Both the position numbers and the translations under genes were made by a program. 64,000 nucleotides of DNA from Synechococcales cyanobacterium CRU_2_2 (lineage in GTDB: Bacteria; Cyanobacteriota; Cyanobacteriia; PCC-9006; JAAUQQ01): assembly GCA_012034805.1 (NCBI GenBank), contig JAAUOP010000007.1, positions 1,003 to 65,002 on the forward strand. Reading direction: 5' to 3'. The notes under the pieces are model-generated. The model saw only the letters and a program-made list of their open reading frames with translations. It was not told the DNA's origin and did no database searches. Positions 11,420-29,834 of the stretch are shown here, piece by piece (position 1 is the first letter of the stretch; each line of letters starts with the position of its first letter).

Positions 11420-12703
11420 ATGCGTCCTCGGCAAGATCTCGCTGAACTCTTCTCAACTTTCCTGCAGCTCGAAACCGGCACTAGCGGTCGCTGGAGCCAT
11501 GAACCGACGCTCAGACGGAGCATACTTCGAGCATTGCAGCTCCAACCGAACCAGGCGGCCAAAGCGACCAACGCGTTCTGGGTTAGTTATTGGTTGGAGC
11601 AGCACCGGCAACAGCATTCATTCCCCTCGTCCGCGTCGGTCTCATCTGCGCCGACTTCATCTGGACATCGCCTCTCCCAACACCATTTACTCGCCTATAC
11701 CCAGGAAGCCTGCTATTGGGCCAGCTACCGGTTTCACAAAACAATGGCCCAGTTTGCCGCGATTTCTGATCAGACCTTGGCTGACTATTTTCAGATCGCC
11801 CAGGCCCAATTTTCCAAGGTGCTAGCTGGGTTTTCACCAGACCGGGGAGCCACCCTTGAGACCTACGCGGAGCTGGCCTTTACCCATCGTTTGAAAGATG
11901 CGGTACGACAACAGAAAACCTTGGATATTTGTAGCAACTGGTCACTGTTACGTCGAACCAGCCGAAAACAGCTTCAAGAAACCTTAGAATACCAATCTCT
12001 CTCTCCCGCTCTCCAACAGCCCTATCTGTGGGCTTGGCTCTGCTTTCGAGAGGGCTGGGTTGGGGCGTCTGCACCTGGGGCGAGGCGACGGCTGGCTCCT
12101 GCGACTGAGGATTGGCAGGCGATCGCCCAAGCCTACAACCAATCAAAACCGCCGGAGCAACCTCTGGCCACCCCCGAGCAACTCGAGCAGCGGTTAACCC
12201 AGATGGCCGCTTGGCTGCGGGCTTATCTGCATCCATCGGTTCAGTCCCTCAATCAACTGCAGTATGGTGAGGAAGGGGAAGAGCGCTTAGCAGGTCTCTC
12301 AGATCCCACCGCTTGGGCACAAAGCGAGGGTTTTGTGGGTAGCCCTTCGTTGTTGACGAATTTGATTGCCGAAGAAGAGATAAACGAACGACAACGGCAG
12401 CGATCGCAGCTCGACCAAGTTCTCGCCCAAGCGATTCAGACCCTCAAGCCCGAGTGGCAGACCGTTCTCGACTTGTACTATCGTCAGGGTCTGATTCAAT
12501 CCCAAATTGCCAAGCACATCGGGTGTTCTCAGCCATCCGTGGCGCGGTATCTGTTGCGAGCCAGGGAAGCGTTGTTGAACGCCTTGGTCACCTGGAGCCA
12601 GCAAACCTTGAATATTGTCTCGAGTCCCGATCGTATAGCCCAGCAGGGTGACGCAATGGAAGAATGGTTGATGGGGCACTATGGTTCTCAATCTAGAGAG
12701 TGA
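11420..12703 (+). CDS. Extended sigma-70-family RNA polymerase sigma factor (cyanobacterial type associated with DUF1822)
   Basis: C-terminal region 4 HTH (VLDLYYRQGLIQSQIAKHIGCSQPSVARYLLRAREAL). N-terminus MRPRQDLAELFSTFLQLE and a long insertion between the region 2-like and region 4 parts. 427 aa. Confidence 0.7.
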   Translation: MRPRQDLAELFSTFLQLETGTSGRWSHEPTLRRSILRALQLQPNQAAKATNAFWVSYWLEQHRQQHSFPSSASVSSAPTSSGHRLSQHHLLAYTQEACYWASYRFHKTMAQFAAISDQTLADYFQIAQAQFSKVLAGFSPDRGATLETYAELAFTHRLKDAVRQQKTLDICSNWSLLRRTSRKQLQETLEYQSLSPALQQPYLWAWLCFREGWVGASAPGARRRLAPATEDWQAIAQAYNQSKPPEQPLATPEQLEQRLTQMAAWLRAYLHPSVQSLNQLQYGEEGEERLAGLSDPTAWAQSEGFVGSPSLLTNLIAEEEINERQRQRSQLDQVLAQAIQTLKPEWQTVLDLYYRQGLIQSQIAKHIGCSQPSVARYLLRAREALLNALVTWSQQTLNIVSSPDRIAQQGDAMEEWLMGHYGSQSRE

Positions 12704-12712
12704 GGAGGTTTT

Positions 12713-14155
12713 ATGGCGGTCTTGAGCGAGGTGGTAGCCGATGCGCGACATTGGTGGATTCCCTTGGATCCGGAGGTCGTTCAGCGCAGCTGGCAGCACA
12801 GCCAGCGGCACAGCCAACCGGGGCGATGTTGGGATGACTACCTGGGCCGATTGTGTTTGGTTGGTCTGGCGGAGGGTTTGGCAGAATTGGAGGCGTTGGG
12901 GCTGAGCAAAATTCAACCTGGATTATCGCCAAGCCTGTCGGTTTGGACTGCCGTTTGGGAGGGAGTTGGGGGCTGCGTGCTGCGGGTTATGCCGGAGATG
13001 GTGATAGCAGAAGGTGTCACGGCTGAGGGTGTCACGGCGGAACGGGTCACGGGAAATGACAGAACGACAGACGAAATCCGGTTGGTAGTAATTCCAGGGG
13101 ATGAGATTGACGCGGAAGCCTTAGTGGTGCCCCAGGAATGGGTGGATGTGCCGGATTGGCGGGGTCACTATTATTTGGCGGTTCAGCTTTGTGGCGAGGC
13201 CGAGGCCGCCGAGGTAGGGGACGAAGAATGTGAGCCCTACGGTTTGAGAGTCTGGGGCTATGCAAGTCATCGTCAATTAAAGGAAAGGGGCGATTATGAC
13301 CCCCAGACGCGCAATTATGTTCTATCACGGCCAGACCTACAGGAGGATCTGACAGCCTTGAGTGTGACGCTGCGCCATTGCGACACCCAGGGAACTCAAG
13401 CCGTAGTGGAACCCTTAGCTGTGGTGTCAGCGGTGCAACGGGAAAATTTGCTCGAGCGCCTAGGGGATCCGGCCTTGGCATTTCCTCGGTTAGCGGTTCC
13501 ATTTGCGCTCTGGGGTGCTTTGATTCAGGATGAGGACTGGCGTAAACGGTTGTATCAGCGACGTTGTCAGGGCTGGGTGGGCCAAGTGGATGCTCAGGTG
13601 ACGCGGTTGAGTCAGTGGCTGGAGGGACAGTTTGAGCAGGGGTGGCGATCGCTCACGGATTTGCTCGGCCCAGGGACAGCATTTGCACCTCAGTTGCGCA
13701 GTGGGATGGTTGATTCGAGGGAGATTGGCCAGAGCGATCTCACCTCGGGCTTCCCGCTAAAACGCGCGAAGTCCATTATCCTGGGCGGAATTTCTGGTGA
13801 AATGACTGACGAAAGCGCCGATGATGTATCCAGAGTGATATTACTCGTTTCAGTTGTTCCCACATCAATTCAATCAGACTCAGTCTTGCAGGTGCAGGTT
13901 CAACTTCATCCTCTTTGCGGACAACAATTGCCCCCAAGGGTGCGACTCGTCTTACACGATCCAGAGCAGGTCATGGATCTACAAGCGATTGAGAGCGGGG
14001 CGGCGGATACCTATCTACAGCTCACGCCCCTCACCGGCAGGGTAGGGGAAACCTTCCAAGTGCGAATTGAGTACCCAGTCTCTAGTCAAACTCACCCCAG
14101 CCAGGAGCAAGATGCCGCAGCCCCTTGGACGGTCACTGAATTATTCCGGCTGTAA
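12713..14155 (+). CDS. DUF1822-like protein
   Basis: RBS gaggagg 6 nt upstream. The segment LVVIPGDEIDAEALVVPQEWVDVPDWRGHYYLAVQL...LRVWGYASHRQLK matches my recollection of the DUF1822 core. The stop overlaps the next ATG (TAATG). Confidence 0.6.
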   Translation: MAVLSEVVADARHWWIPLDPEVVQRSWQHSQRHSQPGRCWDDYLGRLCLVGLAEGLAELEALGLSKIQPGLSPSLSVWTAVWEGVGGCVLRVMPEMVIAEGVTAEGVTAERVTGNDRTTDEIRLVVIPGDEIDAEALVVPQEWVDVPDWRGHYYLAVQLCGEAEAAEVGDEECEPYGLRVWGYASHRQLKERGDYDPQTRNYVLSRPDLQEDLTALSVTLRHCDTQGTQAVVEPLAVVSAVQRENLLERLGDPALAFPRLAVPFALWGALIQDEDWRKRLYQRRCQGWVGQVDAQVTRLSQWLEGQFEQGWRSLTDLLGPGTAFAPQLRSGMVDSREIGQSDLTSGFPLKRAKSIILGGISGEMTDESADDVSRVILLVSVVPTSIQSDSVLQVQVQLHPLCGQQLPPRVRLVLHDPEQVMDLQAIESGAADTYLQLTPLTGRVGETFQVRIEYPVSSQTHPSQEQDAAAPWTVTELFRL

Positions 14156-16615
14156 TGGACAGGCCTATGATGGACAGCGCTTGGACGGCTCCGATACAAA
14201 CCGAAAAACAGGTCATTCTTTCCCTCGCTGGGGGGACGTTAGAGCAAGGCTTTCCAGCAGTGACGATGCAACTGAGTTCGGATCAGCCCCCGACCCAACG
14301 GCTGAAGGTAGTGGGTTCGCTCTCTCCAGCCCCCCATTTGCATCAGCTGTACCACGACTGGCGAGCTCACTATCTAGCCCTCCAGGATCGGCTCAGAATT
14401 CAGCTCGTGGCTGATCACAGCCCCAATCAGGTCTCGCGAGAACGGTTCGAACACCTGTCTGAGCGATTCGGACAGGCGTTAAATCAATGGTTGAGTCTGC
14501 CAGGATTTCATCGGATTGATCAGCAACTGCGGCTATATCTCAATCCCTCAGATCCCATTCGTCTCATTTTGGAAACCGATTGTCCACACACGCGACGGTT
14601 GCCTTGGCATTTATGGCTGTTTTTCCACGACTATCCCCAGGCTGAATTTGCCCTCGGCAGTCTCAACTACCGCCCCACTCAGGCCCCAGGTCTAGCTGCT
14701 CGCTCCAGTTCTATTCGCTCCGGTTCTATTCGCTCCGGTTCCGTGCGAGTCTTGGCAATTTTAGGAACTTCCGTCGGCATTGACGTAGAACGCGATCGCG
14801 CCCTCCTCACCCAACTCCCCCAGACGAGCTCCAATTACTGGTAGAGCCCTCGCGATCGCAACTCCACGCTGCCCTCTGGTCGGATCTAGGGTGGGATATT
14901 CTCTTCTTTGCGGGCCATAGCCAGAGCCAAGCCGGAGATAACAGCGGCCAGATTGCGATTAATGATCGCGAATCGTTGACGATTGAACAGTTGGAATATG
15001 CGCTGGGAGCGGCGATCGTCCGAGGTCTACAACTGGCCATTTTCAACTCCTGTGACGGTCTTGGCCTAGCCCGAGGCTTGGCAAATTTGAATCTTCCCCA
15101 GCTGGTGGTCATGCGAGAGCCGGTACCCGATCGCGTGGCACAAACCTTTCTGACCCATTTTTTGCAAGCGTTCTCCTCCGGGCGCTCCTTCTATGGTGCT
15201 GTGCGAGAAGCGAGGGAGAAACTTCAGGTCCTGGAAGATCAATTTCTGTGCGCGTCTTGGCTACCGGTGATTTATCAGAATCCAGCGGCGATTCCACCCA
15301 GTTGGCAAAGCTTAGCCAGTACTTCGGAGCTAGCCCTAAGCACGAATTCCCGACCTCGGACGATCGCCGCCTTGAAGTTGCACTCGGCTTTAATGCGGGG
15401 AGCGATCGCCGCGATCGTCATCCTAGGCTTACGTTACCTGGGCCTGTTACAGCCCTTTGAACTGTTAGCTTACGATCTCTTGCTCCGCCAACGCCCCGCT
15501 GAAACCACGGATCCGCGCATTTTAGTCGTGGAGGTAACTGAAGAGGACACCAACCGCTATGGCTATCCCCTAGAAGACAAACTTTTGGCTCAGTTGCTTC
15601 AAAAACTTTATCAATCCCAGCCCCGTGCGGTCGGGTTGGATATGCATCGGGCCCAGCCTCGAGGAGAAGGACGCGCCGAATTTTTAGAACAGTTTCAACA
15701 GCATCCGAGTCTGAGTACGGTTTGCTGGGGAAATCAGAATGATCAGAACTTTGCCACCCCGCCTGAATTCGATGCCGTTCAGCAAACCGAACAATTGGCC
15801 TTCAGCGATCTGTTGCCAGACCTCGCACCGTTTGCTTGGCTTTCCTCAGGAACTGTGCGTCGCCAGCTGCTTTCCGTCGATCCAAACCTAGGAGAACTCT
15901 CGGCCTGTACTGCGGTTCAGGGGCTCAGTCTAAGGTTGGCTCAAGTGTTTCTGAGCGCTGAACAGCGAACGATTCGTGTGGACGGGCAAAGACAACTGGG
16001 GTTTTGGATCAAAACGACCTTCTACCAAAGCCTGCCCCGACGAGTTGGAGCCTACCAACACCTAGATGGGCTGAGCAGTCAGATCTTGATCAACTACCGC
16101 TCAGCGCAACCCGGACAACGCGTGAACCTCGAGCAGGTATTGTTGGAGCAACTGCCACCGGAGATGGTGCGCGATCGCATTGTCCTCATCGGCACCACAG
16201 CCCCCGTGGGCGGAGATATCAAGCAAACACCTTTGGGTGAAATGCCAGGCGTTTGGGTTCATGCCCATCAGCTCAGTCAGTTGCTCAGTGCCGTTCTCGA
16301 CCAGCGCCCGCTCCTGGGGACGTTGCCCCAGTGGAAGGATTTCCAGTGGGGAGATGGGCTATGGGTAATGGTTTGGACATTCCTCGGGAGTGGCCTGGGC
16401 TGGGGTTTGAGCTGTGGCCCGACACAGCATTTACGACGCGTCCAGTCGTTGATTTGGGGAACTGGGCTGGGGGGGTCGTGGTGTTGTATGGCATGAGTTT
16501 GGGGGCGATCGCCAGGGCCTTTGGTTGCCCCTGGTTCCCTCTGTTCTCGGTTGGGGGGTGGGTTATGCCGCTAGCCTTCGTCCTAGTTTTCGTTCCGGTT
16601 TTCGTTCCGGTTTAG
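14155..16615 (+). pseudogene. CHAT-like (caspase-fold) domain fused to a membrane CHASE2 sensor domain; reading frame broken twice at homopolymers
   Basis: Candidate His/Cys dyad ILFFAGHS and LAIFNSCDG. TM helix AIAAIVILGL, then the CHASE2 signature LQPFELLAYDLLLRQRP...ILVVEVTEED...AVGLDMH, then C-terminal TM helices. Frame 1 to 3 at C5 (14817-14821). Frame 3 to 2 at G7 (16469-16475). Confidence 0.75.
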
Positions 16616-16648
16616 TCACTCCAGAAATTCACCATCCATAGGTTTGCC

Positions 16649-17409
16649 ATGAATACGACAATTCTCCCTCTCGTCAAGCACACCCCTCTGGTCAGAATTC
16701 TGAAGGGTTTAGCACTATGGACTCTAGCCTGTGGTTTTGGGACTCAGTTGATGCAACCAGCCGTTGCTCAATCAACTGTACAGCCAGCTGAGCGAAGAAC
16801 TCATCAGATTAGCCAGTCTAGACCCGCTCGATCGCGACCCTCTACCCCCAAACCACCCCGCAGTCAGCGACCCAACCAAACCCGAGCCGGGGGCTCACTG
16901 AGTGAATCCTGTTCGCGTTCTCAGCAAGTTCTGTCTGCCCTGGTTCCGACTCAAAACCCAGTCACCACTCGCAAATCCCAACCCACCGTTTGGGTTTATG
17001 TACCCTACACACCCGCTGAGATTCAACAGGCAGAGTTTGTGATCAATGTTGGGATTGCGGAAAAGAACGGTTGTATCGACAAGCGATCGCCCTTCCTCCA
17101 ACCCCTGGATTTGTCGGCCTGACCTTGCCCGCTGAAGTGAGCCTAAAACCCGGTATTCCCTATCGCTGGTACTTGACGCTGCAATGCGTCGGGCCTAAAG
17201 CTACGGCCCAGTTCAGTGTGGATGCAGGCATTCAGGTGGTTGGATCGGAACAGGGGGAGGGGACGATCGCTTGGTATGACGAGGTGGAGGCGATCGCCCA
17301 GCAGTTGCAGTTGCAGCCGGAGAATCGAGAGGTGCGCGATCGGTGGCGTCAGCGCTTGGCAGAACTCGGGCTGGCAGAACTTGCCAATCAGCCGTTACAG
17401 AAGCTTTAG
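16649..17409 (+). pseudogene. DUF928-like exported protein, one frameshift near 17061-17073
   Basis: Signal peptide. QPTVWVYVPYTPAEIQQAEFVINV... continues in frame 1 as LYRQAIALPPTPGFVGLTLPAEVSLKPGIPYRWYLTLQC, the pattern I associate with DUF928. Confidence 0.6.
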
Positions 17410-17450
17410 CCCCCGAGACTGAACCTGAGCTGTATGGGTGCATTCGCTGT

Positions 17451-17495
17451 CTATTACAACCCATTCTATTACAACCCATTCTATTACAACCAATT
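17451..17495. repeat. 15-bp tandem repeat x3 (ctattacaacc[c/a]att) spanning the stop codon of the TPR-CHAT gene
   Basis: Read directly. The third copy contains the last codons plus the stop (NWL*) of the minus-strand gene that ends at 17484. Confidence 0.9.
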
Positions 17496-20171
17496 GCCCA
17501 CCAGCACATAGGTTGCCCACACATGGGGCGTTGTATAGCCCTCCTCCAGCAACGATAACTGCGCCGATCGCAGGGCCTCCGCCCGACTGATTGCTGGATT
17601 TTGCAACGCCTCATAAAACCGTAGCATCAAAGCCGTATTCGGCACATCCTGAGCCTCCCATAGCGTCGAAACCACACTCTGAGCTCCTGCCTGCACTGCC
17701 AACCCCGCCATGCCCAAAACAGCTCGGTTATCTCCTTGAGCCGTAGAACAGGCACTCAAAACTAATAGCTCCACCGGACTCGGCGTACCTGTTCTGGCAT
17801 CGCGCCCCCGCAGCAAAGGGCCTAGTTCTTGCCCTTTGAGCAACCCTTCGTAGGCCACCACAAAGGTTTCTTCTGGATCTGAGCTAAAAACACCGTGGGT
17901 TTTGAGATGAATCGCTGAAAACGATTGGCTAGAGAGCGACTGGGTTAAATTGGCTTTGGTGAACAACTCATTGACCAAGGGCTGGGGTGTGGCAAAGAGA
18001 TTGCGAATGCCTTCGAGTTCTGGTGCGAGGTTGGCGATCGCCGGAAAACTGCGCCCTTCTAGCTCCTGGGGCCGACCCACACCACCCAAAAATACGGAGA
18101 GATTGCGCGATCGCCGTTTGGGATCAAACAATTGCAGCCGAGGCGACAAAGCCACCGCATAGCGGCTAATGAGATAATCCTCCCCGTCGTAGAGCGCGGC
18201 CATCGGAATATTGCGCAAATCTCCATCCAAGACAAACACTAAGGTTTCAACCGACTGGTCTGTGAGGGCAGACTCAAAGGGTTTGATCAACCAGTCATGA
18301 ACCGTGGTGAGGCCTGCGATCGCGTCCGGCGTCCGTCCGGGTGTGGCTAAGTCGTATCGAAGTTGTTGCAGTTGTACCTGCATATCTTTGCGTCCTAGAC
18401 GCACTTCAGTATATTGCAACGGCTGCTGGCCAGGGGGCTCTAGGATAATGACGAGGCGATCGTCCAGAATGAGCGGGTAAAGCTTGGCCGCTTTCGGATC
18501 AACGGCCACGGCCCCGAGAGCCACCGTTTGCGCCAGCTTACAACCGAGGAAATTTTCGAGTTCTGCCAGTTGCAAGGCATCAACCTGTTGAATGGCCTGT
18601 TTTAGGACAGTTTGACTGGGATTGCCGTCCTTGGCGATCGATTCGTCCAACAGCAGCGCAACTAACTCTCGGTAAACGGGCTCTACATCGTCACGGAATG
18701 AAAACTGTAATTCTGGATTACTGGAGAGTAAATCACCGCGAATAGCCGCCAAACTCGTGACCGCATCGCGATAGAGGGCGATCGCCCCTGGCAAATCCTG
18801 CTGCTGGCGCAACAGTCGTCCCAGTTGCCACTCCCAACGATAACGCAAACTTGAAAGTTGTAAGGGATCCAAGGTCAGAAGCGCCTGTTCTGTCCAATAT
18901 TGGGCCTGGGCCCATGCGCCTTGCTGCTCTAACCAGGCTCCCCGCTGACCCAAGGCATGGGCGATCGCGGCAGGATCCGCAAGGGCCTTGGCCTGTCGTA
19001 GGGCAGATTGTATCAAGGGCTCTGGATTTTGTTTGAGCTGGATCAGGCTTTCAGCCAGGTTCAGCTGGGCTTGGACAGTGGCGCGGCTGGCTGGCTGGCT
19101 GGCGAGGTAGAGCGGTAGTTGAGTCTGGAACTGGGAGGCGATCGCGATCGCCTCTGGGGCGTCCATCTCGACCAAAAGGGCCAAACGATTTAATCGACTT
19201 TGCCATTGCAACGGATGGTCTTGGGACAGGGTTTCGGATTGCCGATAAAACTGCAATGCGCTCTGTTCAGCAGCTTTAGCCTCTGCCTGTTTCCCCAAAG
19301 CTTGCCATCGGGTGCGCAAGACCTGGGCACCATTGCCCAGCTCTAGGTATGTTTTGGCTTGTTGATCGATCGCCTCTGGCGGAATCAGGCCGAGGCTTTC
19401 CTGCAGAATCTCTTGCGATCGCTGGGGTTTCCCGATCTGTCGCAAGACAGTGCCGAACAACTGCAGACCCGTGGCCCTTACGTTGGCACTCCAGGGAACT
19501 CCCTTTTGCGATGCTTGGAGTTGCTGATAGCTTTCCTCCAACTGTTCCTCGGCTTGGCCATTGAAGCCCAATGCCATCAGGGCTTGGGCATGATTAAGGC
19601 GCGTTAGCAGCTGACCCTCTGAATCGCCCGCCTCCCCATAAAAAGCCTGGGCAGACTGCCAGGCTTGCTGGGCCTGCTCTATTTTTCCCTGTGACCAATA
19701 CAATCGCCCCTGGACATTGAGAATTCGGGCTTGAATGGATGGCTTGCTGAGGGCAAGAGACGCGTTTGCAGAATCAGTTGTGACTAGGGTTTTGGCTTGT
19801 TTGAGATGAACCTCAGATTGATTCCATTGCCCGAGCTGCTGTTCGGCCAGGGCCAGATAGCTCAGGAGTAGGGCTTGGTGTTGCGGGTGAAGTTTTTGCT
19901 GTTCGAGGGCTGTTTGCCAAAGGGCGATCGCCGCTTGGAAATTTCCCTGTCCGTAGCGTTGAAGACCTTGCTCCCATACTTGTGTTGGGAATCGCTCACT
20001 GGGCGATCGTTCACTGGGCGATCGTTCACTGGGCGATCGTTCACTGGGTAACGGCTCACTCACTGGCTGGGCCCATGCAGGCAATCCGCTGAAGCCGTCA
20101 GCAATGCAAAGTATCAGGCCTAGGGAGCCAGCAGTCATTCGAGTCAGGCGAGACCAGCAACAAACAGCCAT
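17484..20171 (-). CDS. Secreted TPR-repeat CHAT-domain (caspase-like) protein
   Basis: Signal peptide ...GLPAWAQP, (SERSP)x4, long TPR-like helical repeats, and a C-terminal CHAT domain with AIHLKTHG and LLVLSACSTAQGD. Confidence 0.85.
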   Translation of the reverse strand: MAVCCWSRLTRMTAGSLGLILCIADGFSGLPAWAQPVSEPLPSERSPSERSPSERSPSERFPTQVWEQGLQRYGQGNFQAAIALWQTALEQQKLHPQHQALLLSYLALAEQQLGQWNQSEVHLKQAKTLVTTDSANASLALSKPSIQARILNVQGRLYWSQGKIEQAQQAWQSAQAFYGEAGDSEGQLLTRLNHAQALMALGFNGQAEEQLEESYQQLQASQKGVPWSANVRATGLQLFGTVLRQIGKPQRSQEILQESLGLIPPEAIDQQAKTYLELGNGAQVLRTRWQALGKQAEAKAAEQSALQFYRQSETLSQDHPLQWQSRLNRLALLVEMDAPEAIAIASQFQTQLPLYLASQPASRATVQAQLNLAESLIQLKQNPEPLIQSALRQAKALADPAAIAHALGQRGAWLEQQGAWAQAQYWTEQALLTLDPLQLSSLRYRWEWQLGRLLRQQQDLPGAIALYRDAVTSLAAIRGDLLSSNPELQFSFRDDVEPVYRELVALLLDESIAKDGNPSQTVLKQAIQQVDALQLAELENFLGCKLAQTVALGAVAVDPKAAKLYPLILDDRLVIILEPPGQQPLQYTEVRLGRKDMQVQLQQLRYDLATPGRTPDAIAGLTTVHDWLIKPFESALTDQSVETLVFVLDGDLRNIPMAALYDGEDYLISRYAVALSPRLQLFDPKRRSRNLSVFLGGVGRPQELEGRSFPAIANLAPELEGIRNLFATPQPLVNELFTKANLTQSLSSQSFSAIHLKTHGVFSSDPEETFVVAYEGLLKGQELGPLLRGRDARTGTPSPVELLVLSACSTAQGDNRAVLGMAGLAVQAGAQSVVSTLWEAQDVPNTALMLRFYEALQNPAISRAEALRSAQLSLLEEGYTTPHVWATYVLVGNWL

Positions 20172-20259: not shown

Positions 20260-20267
20260 GTGTAAGT

Positions 20268-23200
20268 CTAATCCAACAGCTTGCAATGTTTGACCTGCGT
20301 GGAGGTTGTGGACTTGGCTGCAAGGATGATTTGTCCCTGGGCGTTGACGTCCCAGTGTGTGGCTTCAGCAAGCGGGTTGGGCACGGGAGTCCTGCTGGAG
20401 TGGACTTGTACTTGTGAAGCATTGAGCCCAGGGGGCAGTCGGAGATCGTCGAGGATGCTGGTACTGGTGAGGGGGGCGCTGGGGTTGGGAGGGAGGCCAC
20501 CCCGTCCGGTGACGAAAAACTCACCTTGGCTTGTTTGTCCTGTGGTGTTGGTCGTTTGGCAACCCTGGCTGGGTTGGGGAATATTGGTAGTGCTGGGGAG
20601 TTGAATCGCACCTTGGGCCGGATTGACATTCAGTCCTACTAAATTGAGGGTACCGTTGCTGCCAAACTCTGAGCTCGCGCTGATATCATTGGTCGCTTGT
20701 TGCCGTAATTGATTAAACGTTTTGCCCTTGTCGTTCAGCGTGAAATTGAGGATGCTGTTAGCATTGATGGTGACATTACCACCCCGACCCGTGAAAGCAT
20801 TGGCAATGATATCATTGTTCTCACCAGGCAAGGCCATAACAAAGGGAGCATTAATGGTGATATTGCCACCATCTCCACCGGACTGAGCCGTGCCTGCAGT
20901 GGCAGAAATCAGGCTACTTTGGTGCATGAGCAAGACATCTCTCACTCCCAAGTCAATGTAGCCACCCTGTCCAAAATCTGTGGAGGCTAGAAGTTGGCCC
21001 TCGCTATCCAAGGTTAATTGATTGGATTGAACGGAGAGGGTGCCAGCCGCTCCAGTTGCTGGTCGGGTTCCTATGAGAATACCGGTGATATTTTTGAGGG
21101 TGTTTGTAGCCAGATTAAGATCAGATGCACTCCCGGAGGCAACTGTTATCGTAGCGCGATCGCGCACCTGAACAATGGGCGATCGCACAATTAAATCGCC
21201 AGCCTTCCCTTGATCCGTCGTCTGAGCGTATAAACCACTGGCAAAGCCATCTGGATCGGTACCTTGCACTAGCAATTTTTCTGAGGCTACGACACTCAAC
21301 GTCCCGCCTTGACCTGTGGCAAATGTAGATGCTGAGATTGCGCCCCATTTTGGATTGTAAGTTGAGGTGTGGTGACGCTCAAATCGCCCGCATTACCGAT
21401 GCCAAATGTATCGGTTGAAAATGCTGTTGGCGTTCGGCCTGTGGGGGACAGAATCGATCCATCCAGACTAATCGACTCGGCGGCATTGACCGTCAAGTTA
21501 CCCCCCTGCCCCCTGCCAAATGCTGAAGTAGATAATATGCCTCCTGTCTGCAGAATGACCTGACCCGCGTTCACCGTTAAATCTCCAGCTTTACTGGGAC
21601 TAAAACTAGATGTTGCTAAACGGCTGGGAGACTTGCCATCGGGTGAGATGCCGCTAATATCGACGACACTTGCTGTAATGTTCACATTGCCGCCAAGCCC
21701 TGCTGGAGAGTCAATTGCATTAACATCGCCCGTTGTCGAGGCAATGATAGCGCCATCCCGCAATTGTAAGTGTCCCGCTTCGATCGCTACATTCCCGCCA
21801 TTCCCGGCACCAAGTGTATTAGCGACAATCTGAGACGATTGGCCTGTAGCCGATGTACCTGCCAGGGTTAGACTATCTGTAGCGACAATCGTAATGTCAC
21901 CGCCACGACCCGCCCCTACGGTACCGGCCACAATGTTGGTACCATTCTTGAGGCTGATGGTAGGAGCGCTGAGGCGAATCTCACCCGCCTGCCCTGCGCC
22001 TGCTGTACCACTATTGATCTCGCTATCCGTGAGGGCGATCGCTCCTGCTTGAATGGTGATCGCCCCGGCTTGCCCCGTTCCCGCTGTACCCGTAAGTAAA
22101 CGGCTGTTACTGGAAGCAAACGTGCCCTCATTCGTGATTTGGATATTGCCTCCATTCGCATTGCCAAAGGTCGCAGCATTCAGACTCGAGGTTGTAATAT
22201 TGCCGCTTGGGGCGAACAGTTGAATCGATCCAGCTCCTCCAGCCGCAGAGTCAGTCCGAACAAGTCCTTGGGTGGTGATATCACCGCTGGTACTGGTCAA
22301 GCGAATATCGCCCCCCTGACCCAAGCCAAAACTCCCTGAATCAATGGTGTCTTGCGTAGTAATATCTTGTGCTGCTGTGATAGCGATTGCTCCACCATTC
22401 CCGAACTGGGAGGTTGTCGTTAATTGACCCGTAATATTGACCCTGCCCGTTTCACTAGTCAAGCGAACCGTTCCTCCTGATGCCGATGAAAAGGAGATGG
22501 CTGTGAGAAATCCGGCCACAATATCGCTATATCCTGTGAGCGATATATTTCCGGGTATCAATCCATTTACATCAATGAGAGATGTCTCAATCCCCCCACT
22601 CCGACTGAGCAGTCGAATCGAACCACTAGGGGGGCCACCGAGGCCAAAGGACCGTATTGCAAAGATGCGAACATTATCCTTCGCCAAAACTGTGACATCC
22701 CCACCCCTGCCTGAGTCACCAAAAGGCCCCCGTGCTGCTATGGCACCGATATTAGCACCGCCGCGTGAATCAATCACCACAGTCCCTGCATTACCGGGAA
22801 AGCCATCTACATCAATCTCTCCCTCGACCTGAATCGAGCCACTGAGGGCAGAGTTTGGGGCGTACTGATTCGTTAGAAAAACGAGGCGATCGCTAATATC
22901 ACCGCCGTTGGCTGCTCCAATACTCCCGATCACAATGTCGGTGCTGGTTGGGGTACCTGTACTTGTGGGGGGTGGCGTAAAGCCAAGGGGAGATCCTGTC
23001 AAACTGGGGTTGCCAAAGGCAGTTGTGCCTGCCCGGATATCTAGGGTGGGACGAGCACTTCCATCGATCGCCAAGGTTGTTCCATCGGAGAGAGTCACGG
23101 TTTCCTGAAGCGACGTTGCTGGCGTACCCGCTCCTGTGAGAGTGACACGATCGGAAATCGTGACACTGCCCCCTGCCAGAATATGCAGAGATGTGCCCGT

Positions 23201-24175
23201 ATAGCTCGCAAAACTGACATCGCCGCTGGCACGAAGTACCGGGTCGTGGGGACTGACTAAACTTCCCAAAGCGCCATCCAGTTGCTCAATCCGCAGATTA
23301 CCGCCCGCTTGCCCATGGATATCTCCCAGAACTGGATTTGCGGATCGCCAGATCATATCCCTACCGGACCATAGGCCACTTTGGGGATGATTCAGGGCAG
23401 TCATTTCGACTTGGCGATCGCCTTGAATCAAAAGCTGTCCCTGTGCCGCGACCTGCAAGGGCTGCGTCAGGCTATCGCGGAGTTGCACAGTATCCGAAGC
23501 ATACAAAACTAAATCGCGTCCAGCTTGTATTTGTCCCCGCCCATCAATGCGGCTTGCCGCTAGGGTTAAGTTCTGGGGAGACTGAAGTTGCGCTCCCTCA
23601 ATTACCAAAGCTCCCGAGGCGTTCCCCCACTGCAATCCTGGTGTAACGTTCAAGGTTAGCAATGGTGGTGCTTGGGGATTTGTGGCACTGAATTTGCTGC
23701 CATTGCCAAACGTCAATGCATTAGCTGTGGTTGCCAGGAAGGAACCACCAATATCCAGCGCAGCATGGGAACCGAAGAGAATTCCATTGGGATTGAGCAG
23801 AAACAAACTGGCGCTGCCATTGGCCTTAATCAGCCCATCAATGCTGGAGGGATTACTACCTGTAACTCGAGTAAAAATCGCTTGAATTTGTGAGTCGTTA
23901 TCAAACCACGCTTGTCCCCCTGCAGGAATCGAGAATTCCTTAAAACTGTGGAACAGATTGGAACCTCGGCTCGTGCCGCCATTGATGGTGCAACCTCCTG
24001 TGCAGGGGGCGATCGCAGAGCCATTCACCTGTGTTGACAAGGTTCCATCTCCGGTGATTTGTGCCAGAGCTACAGCTGGTGAGGTGGCTAAAATAACACC
24101 ACCAAGTATCCCTAATCCGCCGCCTTTCGTAGACTGAAACCTTTGTTTTTGAAGCATATCCAGCATCCAGGTCAA
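20268..24175 (-). pseudogene. Giant TPS-domain (filamentous-haemagglutinin N-terminal domain) beta-helical exoprotein, copy 1; one frameshift near 21335-21345
   Basis: TPS motifs NLFHSFKEFSIPAGG and FLLNPNGILFG. G/T/S-rich beta-helix repeats. ORFs 21296..24175 and 20268..21299 join as ...LTIQNGAQ/ISASTFATGQGGTLSVVASEKL once one base is restored. Confidence 0.8.
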
Positions 24176-24265: not shown

Positions 24266-24298
24266 GTAAGGTAGTAGGGTGAAGCCCTACTACCTTAC
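24266..24298 (-). other. 14-bp stem-loop between the RTX gene and FHA-like gene 1
   Basis: gtaaggtagtaggg-tgaag-ccctactaccttac. No clear U-tract, so it may be a processing or weak termination signal. Confidence 0.35.
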
Positions 24299-24341: not shown

Positions 24342-25235
24342 CTAGACAAAGATGAAGTCACGGGACATACTCACGTTTGTGGTGTCCTGGATAACAGCAA
24401 TCAAATCGCTATTGGAATAGACAAGGGTGTCTGTTGCAGCGCTACCGGCCAAGTTGCCGGTGCCGAGAGAATAGCTGGAGTTACCAGTAACCTCCACAAA
24501 GTCACTCGTCCAGTCCCAGTCTGCGATCGTGGCATAGCCAAAGCCCTGATAGGAAACACCCCAACCGCCACCCAGGATAAACGTGTCAGAGCCGGCACCA
24601 CCATAGAGTGTGTCGTATTCCACGCCTGACGTTGCATAACCATCAATGCGGTCATTGCCATCCCCACCGACCAAGGTGTCATCGCCACTCATGCCCAGCA
24701 GGGTATCGTTACCACCACCTCCGTACAAATAATCATGACCTGTTCCGCCATTGAGGTAATCATTGCCCTCGTAGCCACTCAGTGTGTCGCTCCCGTCACC
24801 GCCGTAAAGCGTGTCGTCTCCGTAGCCACCGAGTAGGTAATCATTGCCAGCTCCACCATCCAGGTAATCGGGTGTAAAGGCAAAGCTGCTGACCAATCCA
24901 CCATCAATGTGGTCATCGCCATTGCCACCATACAGACTGTCACTGCCATATCCGCCATAGAGTGTGTCATTACCTGAACCACCCTCTAGAATGTCGGCAC
25001 CATCTCCCCCATCCAAGTAGTCATTGCCTGACTCTCCTTGAAGCAGGTCATTACCGTAACCGCCGTAGATTGTGTCGTTGCCAGAGAAGCCTTTGAGCGT
25101 GTCGTCACCACTCAACCCATCAATGTAATCATTGCCGGAGCCTCCCCAGATAAAATCGTTGCCGGAGGTACCCGTTGCGACGAGGTCATCACTACCGAAG
25201 AAGTTGATATTGGAACCGGTTTGGTAGGTTGTCAT
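24342..25235 (-). CDS. RTX-type (haemolysin-type calcium-binding repeat) protein
   Basis: More than 15 consecutive nonapeptides of the form GGxGxDxLx (GGSGNDYIDGLSGDDTLKGFSGNDTIYGGYGNDLLQ...). 297 aa. Confidence 0.85.
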   Translation of the reverse strand: MTTYQTGSNINFFGSDDLVATGTSGNDFIWGGSGNDYIDGLSGDDTLKGFSGNDTIYGGYGNDLLQGESGNDYLDGGDGADILEGGSGNDTLYGGYGSDSLYGGNGDDHIDGGLVSSFAFTPDYLDGGAGNDYLLGGYGDDTLYGGDGSDTLSGYEGNDYLNGGTGHDYLYGGGGNDTLLGMSGDDTLVGGDGNDRIDGYATSGVEYDTLYGGAGSDTFILGGGWGVSYQGFGYATIADWDWTSDFVEVTGNSSYSLGTGNLAGSAATDTLVYSNSDLIAVIQDTTNVSMSRDFIFV

Positions 25236-25402
25236 TGCTTTATCCCTGCTGTGAATAATGTGTGTTTGAAAGGAAGTTTCGCTTGGAAAACTCGATGTTC
25301 CTTGCTTGATTTCCCTTCATGTCTCCTTGTACGAAGGAGCAAGAAGCGTTATTCACCAGGTAGAAGACAAGACCAATGAAAATCAGCCTGAATACAGCCG
25401 TG

Positions 25403-25828
25403 CTAAAGGGGTTTGACCGCAGCCAATCCAATTTCCTGTCCATGGGATAGCTCCAGGGTATGGCCATCTGGGTCCCGCAAGAAAGCCCAATACCCAATCG
25501 GATAGCCAGAATCTTGGGGAGGCTGGAGCAGTACCCCATCCTGTTTTGCCCGCTCGCACAGCAGATCCATTTGCTCTCGGCTCTCACATCCAACGCCGAG
25601 GTGGGCAAGGGGAGATAACACAGGATGAACTGTAGCGGTTTGAATCAAAACAATCGCAAAGGGACGAGTGCGATCACAAAGCCAGACCACCCCCACCCCC
25701 GTTTCGCCGTCGATGCGGCGATGAATAACCTGCATAGACGCATAGGTCGCATAAAACTCGATGCTGCTGTCAATATCTGCGACCGGGAGCGCGATGTGAG
25801 TCAGGCCAAGATCGATGTTAGCGGACAT
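25403..25828 (-). CDS. VOC/glyoxalase-family protein
   Basis: LTHIALPVADIDSSIEFY...AFLRDPDGHTLELSHG is typical of the VOC fold. Starts 25 nt after the true stop of FHA-like gene 2. Confidence 0.7.
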   Translation of the reverse strand: MSANIDLGLTHIALPVADIDSSIEFYATYASMQVIHRRIDGETGVGVVWLCDRTRPFAIVLIQTATVHPVLSPLAHLGVGCESREQMDLLCERAKQDGVLLQPPQDSGYPIGYWAFLRDPDGHTLELSHGQEIGLAAVKPL

Positions 25829-25852
25829 AAAGACCTCAAGTTCAAGATCGGT

Positions 25853-28800
25853 TTAGTTCAAAAGTTTGCAACGATTTACACCTGGAGCGGTCATGGGTTG
25901 GGCAACAAGGGTAACTTGCCCCTGAGCGTTCATTTTCCAGTGTGTGGCCTCAGCGAGCACAGAGAATGCAGGCACAACAGAAGAATCAGCGACTGAAGCA
26001 TTGAGTCCAGGAGGAATCCGCAAGTCGTCGAGGATGGTAGCGCTGTTGAGGGGGTCGCTGGGGCTAGGGGGGAGCCGCCGCGTCCAGTGGTGAAAAATTC
26101 GGCTGGGGTGGTTGGGCCGTTGCTACGAGTCGTCTCGCAGCCTTGGCGGGGTTGGGGGGTATCGGTGGTGCTCGGGAGCTGTCCAACCCCTTGAGCCGGA
26201 TCCACATTGAGCCCAGTTAAATTGAGGACACCATCGCTACCGAACTCTGAGCTGGCACTGATGTCATTGCTAGGTTGATTTCGCAACTGATCAAAGGTTT
26301 TCCCCTTGTCGTTGACGGTGAAGTTGAGGATATCATTTGCATTAATCGTAATATTGCCACCGGTGCCGCTGAAGGCATTGGCAATGATGTCGTTATTCTC
26401 GCCAGGAAGGGAGATGACAAAGGGAGACGCGATCGCAATATTGCCGCCGTTGCCTGCGCCTTGGGCACGGCCAGCCGTAGCGCTGAGCAGACTGCCATTG
26501 CGCATGATGAGGGCTTGGTCGAGGGCCAAGGTAATGTCGCCACCATTGGCGGTATTGGAATCCGCAACGATTTCACCGCTGTCAAGGAGGAGGCGAGGGG
26601 GAGTGCCGAGGTCACCGATGATGATGTTGCCAGCAGCTCCGGTTGCGGTGGAACGAACGTAGATGCCACTGTTGGGGCTAATGGGCGTGATCGGAGGAAC
26701 ACGGCTACCAAATTGGGCGCGTCGAGCGGCATAAGCGGGGTCACGACCCACGATGCGAATGTTATCTGTGACGTTGATAGCGACTGTCCCCGCCGAGCCG
26801 CTGCTATCACTCGTGGAGAGGATTTGGCCACCGTTGAGGATTGACAATTCCCCAAGCTTGAGCGTGATATCGCCGCCAGCTTGGCTGTTGATAGTCCGAG
26901 AATCCATCACAGCTCCATTGCTGATTTGAAGCTGCGCGGCCGTGAGCAAGATGTCGCCCCCTGCACCTGTCCCTGTGCTGGTGCCGATGCCTGTCCCCGC
27001 CTCCGGTGTACCATTGCCCGCGAAGATTGTGCTAGAGCGCCCGTCTAGAGGGTTGATACCATCTAGCAGAATGTCACGACCGGCTACAATCCTTATATTC
27101 CCTGCATTCCCGTCGCCACGGGTATTGGACAAGAGTGCAGCGCCATCACGCACTTCTAGTCTACCGGCTGTGGTAATCTCGACATCGCCGCCTTTACCTT
27201 TACCGCCAAATCCGACACGGCTGGCAGCGGAGCTAACAGATTCGCCATTGGGGGTAGTGCCTTGAAACAGAACGCGATCGCGGGCGTTGATGGCGACATT
27301 TCCCGCATTCCCCTCGCTAAACGTCGTGGCTGTTAGTCGAGCCCCATCCCGCACCTCTAGACTACCGGTATTAATCTCAATGTTGCCACCTGCCCCCTTG
27401 GCTCTAAATTCCACACTGCTAGCGGCAGCGCTGACAAATCCACTGGCACTACTGCCCTGAAACAGAACGCGGCCAGTTTCTCCAGACTCCGCAGAATCGC
27501 GGGTGTTGATGACAATGTTCCCAGCATCCCCCTCACCGCGGGTATTGGCCAAGAGTTGGGCCCCATCGCGCATCTCCAGGCTGCCAGTATTAATTTCAAT
27601 ATTCCCGCCCTTGCCCTTAGCCCTCACCTCAACGGTGCTAAGAGCAGCTGAAGCACCCTGGAACAGAACGCGACCGGTTTTACCAGGCTGTGTAGAGTTG
27701 AGTGTGTTAATAAGCACGCTTCCCGCATCGCCTGTCCCAAACGTACTCGCACTTAACTGTCCTCCATCTCGCACCACGACCTGTTGTGCCCGCACCTCAA
27801 CATCACCACCCCGCCCCGTTGCCCCAGGTCCGATCTGATTTGCAACCTGACTAAGGTTGCCTGCCACTGTGACCATACTCGTGGCATCGAGTCGTACCGT
27901 TCCCGCTTGGCTACTCGGTGTCCCCAACCCTCGTAAAATTCCCCCGCTTAACACGCTTGCCCCACTGACCTCAATATCCCGCGCCGTAATTGAAATATCT
28001 CCACCACCTACCCCCGCAACAAAGACCCCGGCCCCATTCTCAAACCTGACATCTCCCCGCGCTAGCCCACCGACAAATCCCAGCCCTCCATCCGATGACA
28101 ACAGCACCGTTTCCGGCTCTGCGGTGGGCCCCGCCAAGCTCCGAAGCATCGCCCCAAGTTCAACCCGTCCACCCAACGCGACCAAACGCCCCCGATTAAC
28201 CACCACCTCACCGCCTAATAATCGCAAATTCTGGGTATCAGAAACGCGCAAAACGCCTTCATTGACCGAAATTCCTGGGATCGGACGCGACGTGATCCCA
28301 AAACCACTCGGATCCCCCACAATTCGCAATAAGGGTTGGGCGTTACCTGGGTTTATCGCATCAAAGCGACTCCCGTCAGGCCACACGATCGCATCCAGTG
28401 TCGTCGCCGTAAAATCCCCCCGAGTCGTGCCCCCAATATCAAGCTGGGCATTTGGCCCAAACACAATCCCAGCTGGATTAATCAAAAAGAAATTGACCGC
28501 TGGACTCTCTGTAAAAATCAGCCCATCAATCGATGAAACCGATCCACCCACCACTCGCGCCAAAATGTTACGAATTATTGCTGAGCTTTGAAATCCAACC
28601 TGCTCACCTGTTGCCAAATTAAATCGCCCAAGACTATGGAACAAATTTCTACCAACAGTCGTTCCATCCGCCTGCTGAATCAGATAGTTTGGGCCATTTC
28701 CAAGGATCCTTGCGGATCCTAAGCTGCTATCCAGCGTGATGGTTTGTGCCACCACAGAAGATTCCAAGAATACATGTGTCCCCAGCCATATCCCAAGAAT

Positions 28801-28854
28801 CCATCTGTGTAACACTTGTGAATGACAACAAACTCGAGGACACCCCAGTATCAT
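25853..28854 (-). pseudogene. Giant TPS-domain beta-helical exoprotein, copy 2; C-terminal frameshift at a G5 run (26050-26054)
   Basis: TPS motifs NLFHSLGRFNL and FFLINPAGIVFG. After ...GRGGSPLAPATP, the paralog-matching sequence LNSATILDDLRIPPGLNAS...AEATHWKMNAQGQVTLVA...RCKLLN* continues in another frame to a stop at 25853-25855. Confidence 0.8.
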
Positions 28855-28997
28855 CGTTGTTCTCCTGAGTGATGGATCGAGAAAATAGGATCTCGCAACA
28901 CCTATTTCCGTTTATTCTACAGAACTGAGCTTCTAATGGCATCTAAGGAAGACAGAAGTATCAACCCGCAAAAATCAACAAGCTTTAATCCATGCTC

Positions 28998-29834
28998 TCA
29001 AATTTGCCAACAGTCCCTGTCGTCAGTCAACCTCGTGACAAAGCAAGTGGATTTAAGGGGCTCAAGCCGACTTGAAAAACGAATTAGCTCACGAGCATGG
29101 TTCAGAAATTCGCTATCCTCGGACAGCTGTGCAATTCCTTGTTTTGCCTCCCGCGCTAGTCGCTGGTGGTCGCTGTCATTGTCCGATCGCAACCGATCGA
29201 TCGCCGTCAAGGCCTGGGACAGTTCGCTCCGCATCTGCCGAGAAAATTGCTGTGACTTCTCCACCCAAGATCCCTCATACTCCGGGTCAAGTTGTTGCTC
29301 TAGCATCTTTGTCGTCGTTTCTAGGCGTTCCAGGCGATCGCGCAATTCCAGCACATCCTCCCGAGGATAGCGAAACTCCTGGCGAATCGAGTGCAGTCGT
29401 TGCGCCAAATACTCATAGCCTTGCAGCGTAGGCCGTAGTCCGGTCAGCAACAATGCGGCTCCAGAGCTGAGATAGCCGATGGCACTAATACCCGTGGCCG
29501 CTAGACCATAGAGCACCGCCGCCGAAAGCAGGTGCAAGATAATGGCCACCCCGAGCGATCGCCGAGCCAGGGTTGCGGCATAGCTGAGCTTTTCGGGGGC
29601 GATCGCAATCTGTCTCTCCTGGGACTGTTCCGCCTCAACCAACACATCCCGCGCCTGCAAGTGGATATTCCAGGGCACCGTCGTAATCAGCAACAGCCAC
29701 TGAAAACTCAGCCCGCCAATCACCCAATCCAGTAAGCTGCCAGTGGGCACCTGGAACCACTGCAGTACCGAAAACAGCAGCAATAAAAACAAGCCAAGCC
29801 CGAGACTCGATGGCCAGAAAGAACCGAAGAACAT
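28998..29834 (-). CDS. Hypothetical membrane protein with a C-terminal coiled coil
   Basis: Four hydrophobic segments (MFFGSFWPSSLGLGLFLLLLF...), then a heptad-like region (LELRDRLERLETTTKMLEQQL). Start chosen at the internal ATG 29834. Lies directly upstream of FHA-like gene 2 on the same strand. Confidence 0.45.
   Translation of the reverse strand: MFFGSFWPSSLGLGLFLLLLFSVLQWFQVPTGSLLDWVIGGLSFQWLLLITTVPWNIHLQARDVLVEAEQSQERQIAIAPEKLSYAATLARRSLGVAIILHLLSAAVLYGLAATGISAIGYLSSGAALLLTGLRPTLQGYEYLAQRLHSIRQEFRYPREDVLELRDRLERLETTTKMLEQQLDPEYEGSWVEKSQQFSRQMRSELSQALTAIDRLRSDNDSDHQRLAREAKQGIAQLSEDSEFLNHARELIRFSSRLEPLKSTCFVTRLTDDRDCWQI

Follow-up and report, generated by a model that had tools for sequence, protein, structure and literature searches.

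A widespread cyanobacterial gene module that combines a sigma factor–DUF1822–CHAT–CHASE2 core with TPS-domain exoproteins and an exported TPR-CHAT protein

Positions 11420–29834 of the 64-kb stretch analyzed here (the window), which comes from a metagenome-assembled genome of the cyanobacterium CRU_2_2, contain a copy of a two-armed module that is widespread in cyanobacteria. The first arm, which is predicted to be cytoplasmic and inner-membrane, consists of a three-domain sigma-70-family factor, a DUF1822 protein and a protein in which an EACC2-like domain and a CHAT protease domain are joined to a periplasmic CHASE2 sensor. The second arm, predicted to be extracytoplasmic, consists of DUF928, one or more beta-helical exoproteins with a TPS (two-partner secretion) domain, a Sec-exported TPR-CHAT protein and often an RTX protein. 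We give an even chance to the reading that an envelope signal is passed to the cytoplasmic CHAT domain, that the sigma factor is thereby released and that the secreted proteins are made as a result. We infer these causal steps from gene content and linkage, fused proteins, topology, catalytic residues and a cis-element of the Nostocales.

The open reading frames (ORFs) of the window were listed and their products searched with Pfam and NCBIfam (TIGR) profiles. These searches upheld the family calls of a first-pass annotation of the same DNA, i.e. a sigma factor of the sigma-70/extracytoplasmic function (ECF) type, DUF1822, CHAT–CHASE2, DUF928, two TPS proteins, RTX, VOC and a TPR-CHAT protein with a signal peptide. 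The genes are listed below (aa, amino acids); where a gene is broken in this assembly the corrected coordinates are given first.

11420–12703, plus strand: sigma-70-family factor, 427 aa, with a conserved N-terminal extension of ~90 aa, sigma2, a sigma3-like middle and sigma4
12713–14155, plus strand: DUF1822 protein, 480 aa (Pfam DUF1822, 1e-47)
14155–16641 corrected (uncorrected ORF 14155–16496), plus strand: CHAT–CHASE2 protein (CHAT 3e-8, CHASE2 2e-55)
16649–17409 corrected (uncorrected ORF 16649–17122), plus strand: DUF928 protein (2e-9), predicted to be exported, signal peptide …AVA|QS
17484–20171, minus strand: TPR-CHAT protein, predicted to be exported, 895 aa (884 aa from the second Met; CHAT 7e-50, TPR_12 2e-12)
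20268–24175 corrected (uncorrected ORF 21296–24175), minus strand: TPS exoprotein 1 (TPS1), ~1300 aa (TPS domain PF05860 9e-54, TIGR01901 5e-26)
24342–25235, minus strand: RTX protein (HemolysinCabind), 297 aa (Pfam 1.5e-51, 7 stretches), without a signal peptide
25403–25828, minus strand: VOC/glyoxalase-fold protein, 141 aa (Glyoxalase 8e-11)
25853–28854 corrected (uncorrected ORF 25930–28854), minus strand: TPS exoprotein 2 (TPS2), ~1000 aa (TPS domain PF05860 2e-33)
28998–29834, minus strand: membrane protein with a helical C-terminus, 278 aa from Met104, with hydrophobic segments

The sigma factor and DUF1822 genes are 9 nt apart, with the junction TGA-GGAGG-N4-ATG at 12703/12713, and the DUF1822 stop overlaps the CHAT–CHASE2 start as TAATG at 14155. 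Both the overlap and the junction with the spacing of a ribosome-binding site are thus present as first described.

Next we compared the window with related loci, which are labeled with L-numbers (L013, L033, L089 etc.). An alignment of DUF1822 served as the query against cyanobacterial contigs with one genome per species, and it matched at least 592 loci. Eighty of these DUF1822-anchored loci were kept, each with 10-kb flanks; 43 of the 80 have at least 8 kb on both sides (complete-flank loci). Their six-frame ORFs were searched with the window proteins and then with iterated hidden Markov models. The following partners were found.

Sigma factor: 77 of 80 loci; 41 of 43 complete-flank loci
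EACC2-like N-domain: 73 of 80 loci; 42 of 43 complete-flank loci
CHASE2: 69 of 80 loci; 42 of 43 complete-flank loci
DUF928: 28 of 80 loci; 22 of 43 complete-flank loci
TPS: 37 of 80 loci; 22 of 43 complete-flank loci
TPR-CHAT: 28 of 80 loci; 20 of 43 complete-flank loci
RTX: 8 of 80 loci; 5 of 43 complete-flank loci
VOC: 0 of 80 loci; 0 of 43 complete-flank loci

The expectation that these families are syntenic beyond chance is borne out by the complete-flank loci for the sigma factor, CHAT–CHASE2 (42 of 43), DUF928, TPS and TPR-CHAT. The gene order sigma > DUF1822 > EACC2-CHAT-CHASE2 (> DUF928) is near invariant (70–77 of the 80 loci). Fourteen of the 29 DUF928 genes in related loci lie directly downstream of CHASE2, and a TPS gene is often found directly ahead of TPR-CHAT on the same strand.

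The reciprocal comparison used TPR-CHAT as the anchor in six loci (L083–L088), with the contexts read from Pfam annotation. CHAT–CHASE2 occurs in four of the six and TPS also in four; the core, TPS and TPR-CHAT stand together in three (L083, L084 and L088). L086 contains CHAT–CHASE2, a DUF1822 fusion and RTX, while L085 has TPS and TPR-CHAT alone, with the core not nearby, and L087 has a short DUF1822 gene ~8 kb away and nothing else of the module. RTX genes are present in L083, L086 and L088. With at most a handful of CHAT–CHASE2 genes per genome, a rough, uncomputed estimate of the chance of meeting one in a given 20-kb window is ~1–2 %. The observed four of six is therefore far above chance. 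The co-localization extends over Nostocales, Leptolyngbya-like strains, Elainella and Pleurocapsales, and gene orders and orientations vary among them.

Two genes that the first-pass annotation had counted as members dropped out in this comparison. The VOC gene has no counterpart in the 80 DUF1822-anchored loci, and its only observed relative, a DUF4440-Glyoxalase gene, occupies the corresponding place in L083, where the closest TPR-CHAT (74 %) is encoded; the VOC gene is probably a lineage-specific passenger. The membrane protein at 28998–29834, described as a coiled-coil protein, has no homologue in the related loci and no match in Pfam, NCBIfam or PADLOC searches, and we regard it as a flanking gene. 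A MarR-like gene upstream of the module was also rejected, as no homologue occurs in the related loci.

The neighborhoods contain further genes. In Nostoc (L024 13714-18887; L081 15487-19959; including pCC7120alpha) a C39-peptidase ATP-binding cassette (ABC) exporter, HlyD and small GG-leader beta/gamma-crystallin proteins lie between CHAT–CHASE2 and TPS, and an SdrD-like adhesin is among the recurrent neighbors of related loci. The module is present several times per genome in filamentous cyanobacteria; copies are found on the plasmids pCC7120alpha (PCC 7120; 335.7–353.7 kb) and pNPUN03 (N. punctiforme). In a survey from 2024, alr7311 on pCC7120alpha is entered as 'SigJ.1.1', a sigma factor that had not been classified before. 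The sigma factor of the pCC7120alpha module is probably alr7311.

Fused proteins provide a second line of evidence. In Calothrix anomala (L033 12701-19153) a single TPS::CHAT protein of 2151 aa contains, in this order, a signal peptide, a TPS domain, beta-helix repeats, a Pro/Ser-rich linker and a CHAT domain with an intact dyad. The lack of an internal signal peptide marks it as a genuine fusion rather than a read-through product. Its gene directly follows sigma–DUF1822–DUF928, and the CHAT–CHASE2 gene is absent from this locus. In Xenococcus PCC 7305 (L086 2199-4070) an NB-ARC/NACHT STAND NTPase is fused to the C-terminal half of DUF1822. This gene adjoins CHAT–CHASE2, and the sigma gene is absent; precomputed matches also list a helix-turn-helix domain. 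The presence of this fusion in the place of the sigma factor argues that DUF1822 is a connector, which would join the protease-sensor to the transcriptional output.

The third line of evidence is an upstream element. In Nostocales the TPS genes are preceded by a conserved element of ~85 nt, which consists of GTGCATAA, an 18-nt spacer, yATAnT and a conserved 5' untranslated region, in which base pairing of UUUCCU with the Shine–Dalgarno sequence AGGAGA could give a masking hairpin. The element was mapped with nhmmer profiles, since an earlier loose regular expression had given mostly noise from coding sequence. It precedes TPS genes or TPS remnants in ~25 loci, TPR-CHAT in L019 and L021, and DUF928 in L048 and L056 (example sites: L013 17322-17404; L019 14044-14107; L021 18297-18328; L048 12500-12580). 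If the extracytoplasmic genes have a promoter in common, GTGCATAA-N18-yATAnT is the strongest candidate for it. Together with this element, the TPS::CHAT and STAND–DUF1822 fusions tie the parts of the module to each other.

The sigma operon has a conserved block of its own, GATAGTTGCTTAAGTTCGGATCAATTTAAATTTTTAACTGCTTATG, which abuts the ATG without an obvious Shine–Dalgarno sequence (L012 ~8700-8745 and many Nostoc loci) and may mark a very short or leaderless 5' end. A promoter common to the sigma, TPS1, TPS2, RTX, TPR-CHAT and DUF928 genes of the window was looked for and rejected, as only chance 8-mers were recovered; sigma-70-like matches upstream of the window genes were not above the shuffled background. 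Footprinting of the window against the L083 locus (74 % identical TPR-CHAT) revealed no conserved upstream block. Between the RTX gene and TPS1 of the window lies a perfect hairpin with a 12-bp stem (24268-24296), AAGGTAGTAGGG-CTTCA-CCCTACTACCTT, which may be a terminator or a processing site; a sigma-70-like TTGGCT-N17-TATACT follows downstream of it.

The plus-strand operon and the minus-strand array could also be unrelated gene sets that are adjacent by accident, and two observations fit this: in 10 of the 43 complete core loci DUF928, TPS and TPR-CHAT are all missing within 10 kb, and PCC 7375 has TPS and TPR-CHAT with the core not nearby. Yet the same neighbors recur in Nostocales, Leptolyngbya-like strains, Elainella and Pleurocapsales in different orders and orientations, the DUF928 gene on the operon side has the upstream element in common with TPS and TPR-CHAT, and in L033 sigma–DUF1822–DUF928 is joined directly to the TPS::CHAT fusion. 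We therefore consider an accidental juxtaposition highly improbable. That the two convergent gene sets are functionally linked, as had been proposed, is supported by about half of the complete DUF1822 loci, four of the six TPR-CHAT loci, the TPS::CHAT fusion and the Nostocales element.

The sigma factor reached 81 bits with the sigma70-ECF profile TIGR02937 (cut-off 42.9) over aa 90–389, and in Pfam region 4 alone passed (Sigma70_r4_2, 4e-8). A profile built from it matched regions 2 and 4 of SigF/FliA among the sequences of the PDB. Its AlphaFold2 (AF2) model, with a pLDDT (predicted local distance difference test) of 84.5, aligns with full-length sigma2-3-4 factors (9a7s SigD, E 1e-4), and the length of ~400 aa is conserved among homologues. 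Classical ECF factors are defined by sigma2 and sigma4 only and ~170–200 aa; the window protein, with 427 aa and a sigma2-3-4 model, falls outside this class.

In the AF2 model of DUF1822 (pLDDT 77.6) an alpha/beta part at the N-terminus is followed by a helical middle and, at the C-terminus, a beta-sandwich. A Foldseek search with this model against the PDB gave nothing at E<1e-3, with Ig-like matches to the C-terminal sandwich only, and a profile search against PDB sequences gave zero matches. An assignment of DUF1822 as a TPR or TRADD-N protein was tried and could not be confirmed by fold or sequence searches against the PDB.

The layout of the CHAT–CHASE2 protein was read from the intact orthologue in L089 (835 aa). 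It has a conserved N-domain (aa 1–200), CHAT (aa 205–390), a first transmembrane helix (~aa 414–443), a periplasmic CHASE2 domain and C-terminal transmembrane helices. The topology predicted from this layout, with the CHAT protease in the cytoplasm and the CHASE2 sensor in the periplasm, agrees with the arrangement suggested at first. The EACC2-like N-domain is recognized as a conserved region of ~190 aa, which is present in 73 of the 80 related loci. The catalytic dyad His263/Cys308 (L089 numbering; 'FFAGHS', 'FNSCDG') is invariant in 76 of 76 proteins, i.e. the L089 reference and 75 locus homologues. The His/Cys dyad of TPR-CHAT is likewise invariant in 120 of 120 homologues, the majority of them with a hydrophobic segment at the N-terminus. 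The invariance of both dyads suggests that both CHAT proteins have been kept as active proteases. Among other EACC2–CHAT variants we noticed a CHAT–Pkinase–CHASE2 protein (L070 13303-16686), on a contig that is labeled Rhizobium and probably mis-binned, and a CHAT–NACHT protein (L052 17565-20807).

On the extracytoplasmic side, the hydrophobic N-terminus of the window TPR-CHAT reads as a signal peptide (…LPAWA|QP) and is followed by four PSERS repeats. TPS1 and TPS2 both have hydrophobic N-termini, and the last ~220 aa of TPS1 are homologous to the end of TPS2. This C-terminal domain has no Pfam match and is present in 38 of 88 fetched loci. The window module encodes no exporter of the ABC/membrane fusion protein (MFP) type for the RTX protein, and the HlyD/FtsX/ABC genes at 54–58 kb form a cluster of their own.

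The plus-strand core is a member of a system that has been described computationally by Kaur, Iyer, Burroughs and Aravind (eLife 2021, PMC8195603). In the proteins that these authors define, the N-terminus is a constant EACC2 domain, a caspase domain comes next and the C-terminus varies, CHASE2 being one example; they propose that a stimulus activates the peptidase and this leads to sigma-driven transcription. In their supplement the CHASE2-type neighbors of DUF1822 proteins are labeled 'EACC2+CASPASE+CHASE2+TM+TM'. The window has the features of these systems, namely the CHAT dyad, a CHASE2 sensor with transmembrane helices, and adjacent genes for an ECF-type sigma factor and DUF1822; the three genes, the domain order and the logic from sensing to sigma are the same. 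There are three differences. The extracytoplasmic arm goes beyond the main text of that paper, in which DUF928, TPS exoproteins and the exported TPR-CHAT do not figure; they appear there only as isolated neighborhood strings in supplement file 17. DUF1822 is called a TPR protein there, whereas our model suggests an alpha/beta, a helical and a beta-sandwich part. Finally the sigma factor is called ECF there, whereas our model points to a sigma3-like middle domain. The novelty that had been claimed for the gene cluster is therefore reduced, since the sigma, DUF1822 and EACC2-caspase-CHASE2 core and the idea of a path from sensing over peptidase to sigma were already published; what stands is that no experimental study was found.

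In the framing of Kaur et al. the core would be an anti-invader or abortive-infection conflict system, with CHAT as a death or immune effector, a sigma factor directed to defense genes and the exoproteins as incidental neighbors. The highly variable C-terminal sensors of the EACC2-caspases (Pkinase–CHASE2 in L070, NACHT in L052 and more in Kaur et al.) fit this explanation, as do the role of CHAT proteases in type III CRISPR defense and in the DdvA-regulated defense island, and the plasmid-borne copies with more than one per genome. On the other hand the PADLOC defense models match no component, and the recurrent neighbors are secreted or surface proteins (TPS, RTX, DUF928, C39-ABC/HlyD with GG-leader beta/gamma-crystallin, SdrD-like adhesin) and not nucleases or defense effectors. 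Furthermore, CHASE2 is predicted to face the periplasm, while most invader cues are cytoplasmic. We judge a conflict system to be unlikely.

Two experimentally studied systems resemble parts of the module. The first is DdvA–DdvS of Myxococcus xanthus (PMC11506125), a precedent from experiment for the coupling of CHAT to a sigma factor: DdvA is a transmembrane anti-sigma protein with a periplasmic TPR-CHAT part, DdvS is an ECF sigma factor, and autoproteolysis has been proposed as the release step. The two have in common a membrane protein that unites a CHAT protease with dedicated sigma control. They differ in topology, because DdvA has its CHAT domain in the periplasm and a zinc-binding anti-sigma domain in the cytoplasm, whereas here CHAT would be cytoplasmic and CHASE2 periplasmic. 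No anti-sigma domain is detectable in the module and a separate DUF1822 protein intervenes; moreover the DdvS regulon comprises a cyclic-oligonucleotide-based anti-phage signaling system (CBASS) and CRISPR genes, not exoproteins. The second is Craspase of type III-E CRISPR, with the TPR-CHAT protease Csx29 (PMC10028731). The exported protease of the module has the same TPR plus CHAT architecture, but it has a predicted signal peptide and would be extracytoplasmic, and it has no PADLOC match. Cas7-11/gRAMP and other cas genes were not identified among the scanned ORFs of the window; no search aimed at CRISPR arrays was made.

The TPS proteins have the hallmarks of two-partner secretion (type Vb), with a Sec signal, a TPS domain with an NPNG(I) motif and a long beta-helix. 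They also have a conserved C-terminal domain, which could be a periplasmic prodomain, and a dedicated protease gene adjoins. In FhaB, such a C-terminal domain of a TpsA protein can be the target of regulated periplasmic proteolysis, and RTX proteins co-occur with TPS here as the adenylate cyclase toxin (ACT) does with FhaB. The partner protease differs in being a caspase-like CHAT protein and not a subtilisin, DegP or CtpA. Unlike known two-partner systems the module has no adjacent TpsB, nor was one found in the scanned ORFs of the 64-kb window. While the exoproteins named in the first-pass annotation do carry TPS domains, the TPS system of the window is thus incomplete. The TpsB proteins reported from cyanobacteria belong to the Hmw1B type (PMC4104836), and for this module TpsB would be encoded elsewhere.

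A further explanation is that the TPS/TPR-CHAT/RTX arm is a weapon for inter-bacterial competition or kin recognition, of the contact-dependent inhibition (CDI) or polymorphic-toxin type, and that the sigma–CHAT–CHASE2 arm is only its regulator. Both TPS-domain beta-helical exoproteins and RTX proteins are textbook examples of secreted effectors, many Nostoc loci have C39-peptidase ABC exporters with GG-leader peptides between the arms, and in the L033 fusion CHAT occupies the C-terminus of TpsA, which is the position of a CDI toxin. CDI and polymorphic-toxin TpsA proteins, in contrast, have a variable C-terminal toxin and an immunity gene, whereas the C-termini of TPS1 and TPS2 are mutually homologous and conserved in the fetched loci and hence not polymorphic. 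Neither a toxin domain nor a small immunity-like gene was found in the profile scans of the window, and no TpsB or CdiB is adjacent. The RTX protein compares with type I secretion substrates in its Ca-binding nonapeptide repeats and differs in that no dedicated ABC/MFP exporter lies within the window module, while the Nostoc versions have C39-ABC and HlyD. We consider a weapon distinctly unlikely.

Four genes of the module are broken in this assembly by six 1-nt frameshifts, three in CHAT–CHASE2 and one each in DUF928, TPS1 and TPS2. The comparison was made with L089, a contig of another sample with 95–96 % nucleotide identity, in which the four plus-strand genes are intact (sigma 427 aa, DUF1822 490 aa, CHAT–CHASE2 835 aa, DUF928 253 aa). 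Alignment with L089 locates 1-nt deletions at 14825, 16474 and 16511 in CHAT–CHASE2 and at 17060, in an A-run, in DUF928, and three-frame reading shows changes of frame at ~14820 (CHAT–CHASE2), ~17060 (DUF928), ~21340 (TPS1) and ~26074 (TPS2). The repaired DUF928 frame agrees with the homologues. TPS1 is split near 21340, and ORF 20268–21299 is its displaced C-terminus. The conserved C-terminus of TPS2 is cut short by the frameshift at ~26074, which falls in a C6 run; the actual stop codon occupies 25853–25855, and three-frame reading recovers '…WKMNAQGQVTLVAQ…CKLLN*', which matches the end of TPS1. The gene models given at first therefore had the positions of the families right and overlooked the six frameshifts and the C-terminal ORF of TPS1. 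ORF 17213–17614 is spurious, and ORF133, which overlaps the repaired end of DUF928 and has zero homologues in related loci, was rejected as a member of the module.

The copy number of four tandem repeats differs between the window and the 95 % identical L089: (GGCTTAGA)n upstream of the sigma gene (~11332), the 8-nt unit (ATGGACTC)n at the CHAT–CHASE2 start codon (14154), a 15-nt repeat encoding SIRSG (14700-14745) and the four PSERS repeats of TPR-CHAT (~20000-20060). Elsewhere in the window a TonB-dependent receptor is split at 5304 (Plug 4030–5304, barrel 5304–6365) into abutting ORFs like those of the module, and a glutamate dehydrogenase is split at 43244 in the same way (42594–43244 and 43244–43936).

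The six indels are most simply explained as sequencing or assembly errors. If they were real, the module in this strain would be a decaying pseudogene cluster without current function, whatever the family does elsewhere. In favor of decay, six single-base indels fall in the 18-kb module and only two were noticed in the other 46 kb (5304 and 43244), and the four plus-strand genes are intact in so close a relative as L089. However, the search for frameshifts was far more thorough inside the module, which biases this count, and housekeeping genes of the window are affected as well. Most of the sites are in or beside short homopolymer runs, the source is a metagenome-assembled genome, and outside the indels the frames are clean, with no further stops and no decay of conserved motifs seen. 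We hold a pseudogene cluster to be rather unlikely.

The reading to which we give an even chance can now be set out step by step. CHASE2 would sense a cue in the envelope or periplasm, possibly through DUF928, which is a probable periplasmic partner because its gene is so often directly coupled to the CHASE2 gene. The signal would switch on the cytoplasmic CHAT protease, for which the protease itself, DUF1822 and the N-terminal extension of the sigma factor are candidate targets. Cleavage would free the sigma factor, with DUF1822 as an adaptor or an anti-sigma-like holder. A precedent for such gating of a sigma factor by CHAT cleavage is Csx29, which reportedly cleaves the ECF-sigma-linked Csx30. 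The freed sigma factor would then transcribe the DUF928, TPS, TPR-CHAT and RTX genes, and the exported TPR-CHAT would process or accompany the TPS exoprotein outside the cytoplasm.

Several observations weigh against this mechanism. The Nostocales element was not found ahead of the sigma operon, and neither the window nor Leptolyngbya-type loci contain it; the link from the sigma factor to the exoprotein promoters thus stays a proposal. DUF1822 has no anti-sigma similarity that is detectable with Pfam, NCBIfam, PDB folds or PDB sequences. No TpsB (POTRA/ShlB/Omp85) was found among the scanned non-overlapping window ORFs of at least 150 aa, nor among the conserved neighbors of the 80 DUF1822 loci or the Pfam-annotated contexts anchored on TPR-CHAT, and this leaves the export of the TPS proteins unaccounted for. 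About half of the core loci have no TPS or TPR-CHAT within 10 kb. The six frameshifts may mean that the module is non-functional in this strain, and the literature on DUF928, DUF1822, CHAT with hemagglutinin and the PCC 7120 locus tags contained no experimental study of the module.

A more elaborate version of the same mechanism would be a trans-envelope relay of two caspases. In it the exported TPR-CHAT acts on TPS and/or DUF928 and so creates the periplasmic cue, which passes through CHASE2 to the cytoplasmic CHAT, and the three-domain sigma factor is freed from DUF1822 as an anti-sigma protein or adaptor with a new fold. We offer this relay as speculation with a small chance of being correct.

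Outside the module, the window contains iron-stress-like genes on both flanks (2658-8235 and 45066-49325), which encode ExbB, a TonB-dependent receptor, PepSY-TM, ferritin/Dps, an isiA-like antenna protein of photosystem II and flavodoxin. An ORF of 551 aa on the minus strand (601-2256), in a region of high GC content and GC skew, has zero matches in Pfam and NCBIfam.

If the relay were true, it would link the state of surface exoproteins with transcription in multicellular cyanobacteria by a novel route, with TPS proteins that use no dedicated TpsB. As for the gating of sigma factors by CHAT, which is otherwise represented by type III-E CRISPR and DdvA/DdvS of Myxococcus, the module would be a much commoner and CRISPR-independent version. 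It would also join in one circuit four families without known function, namely DUF1822, DUF928, EACC2 and the TpsB-less cyanobacterial TPS proteins. The element GTGCATAA-N18-yATAnT is a concrete candidate promoter for the sigma factor, and copies of the module are present in PCC 7120 and N. punctiforme, both of which are amenable to genetic work.

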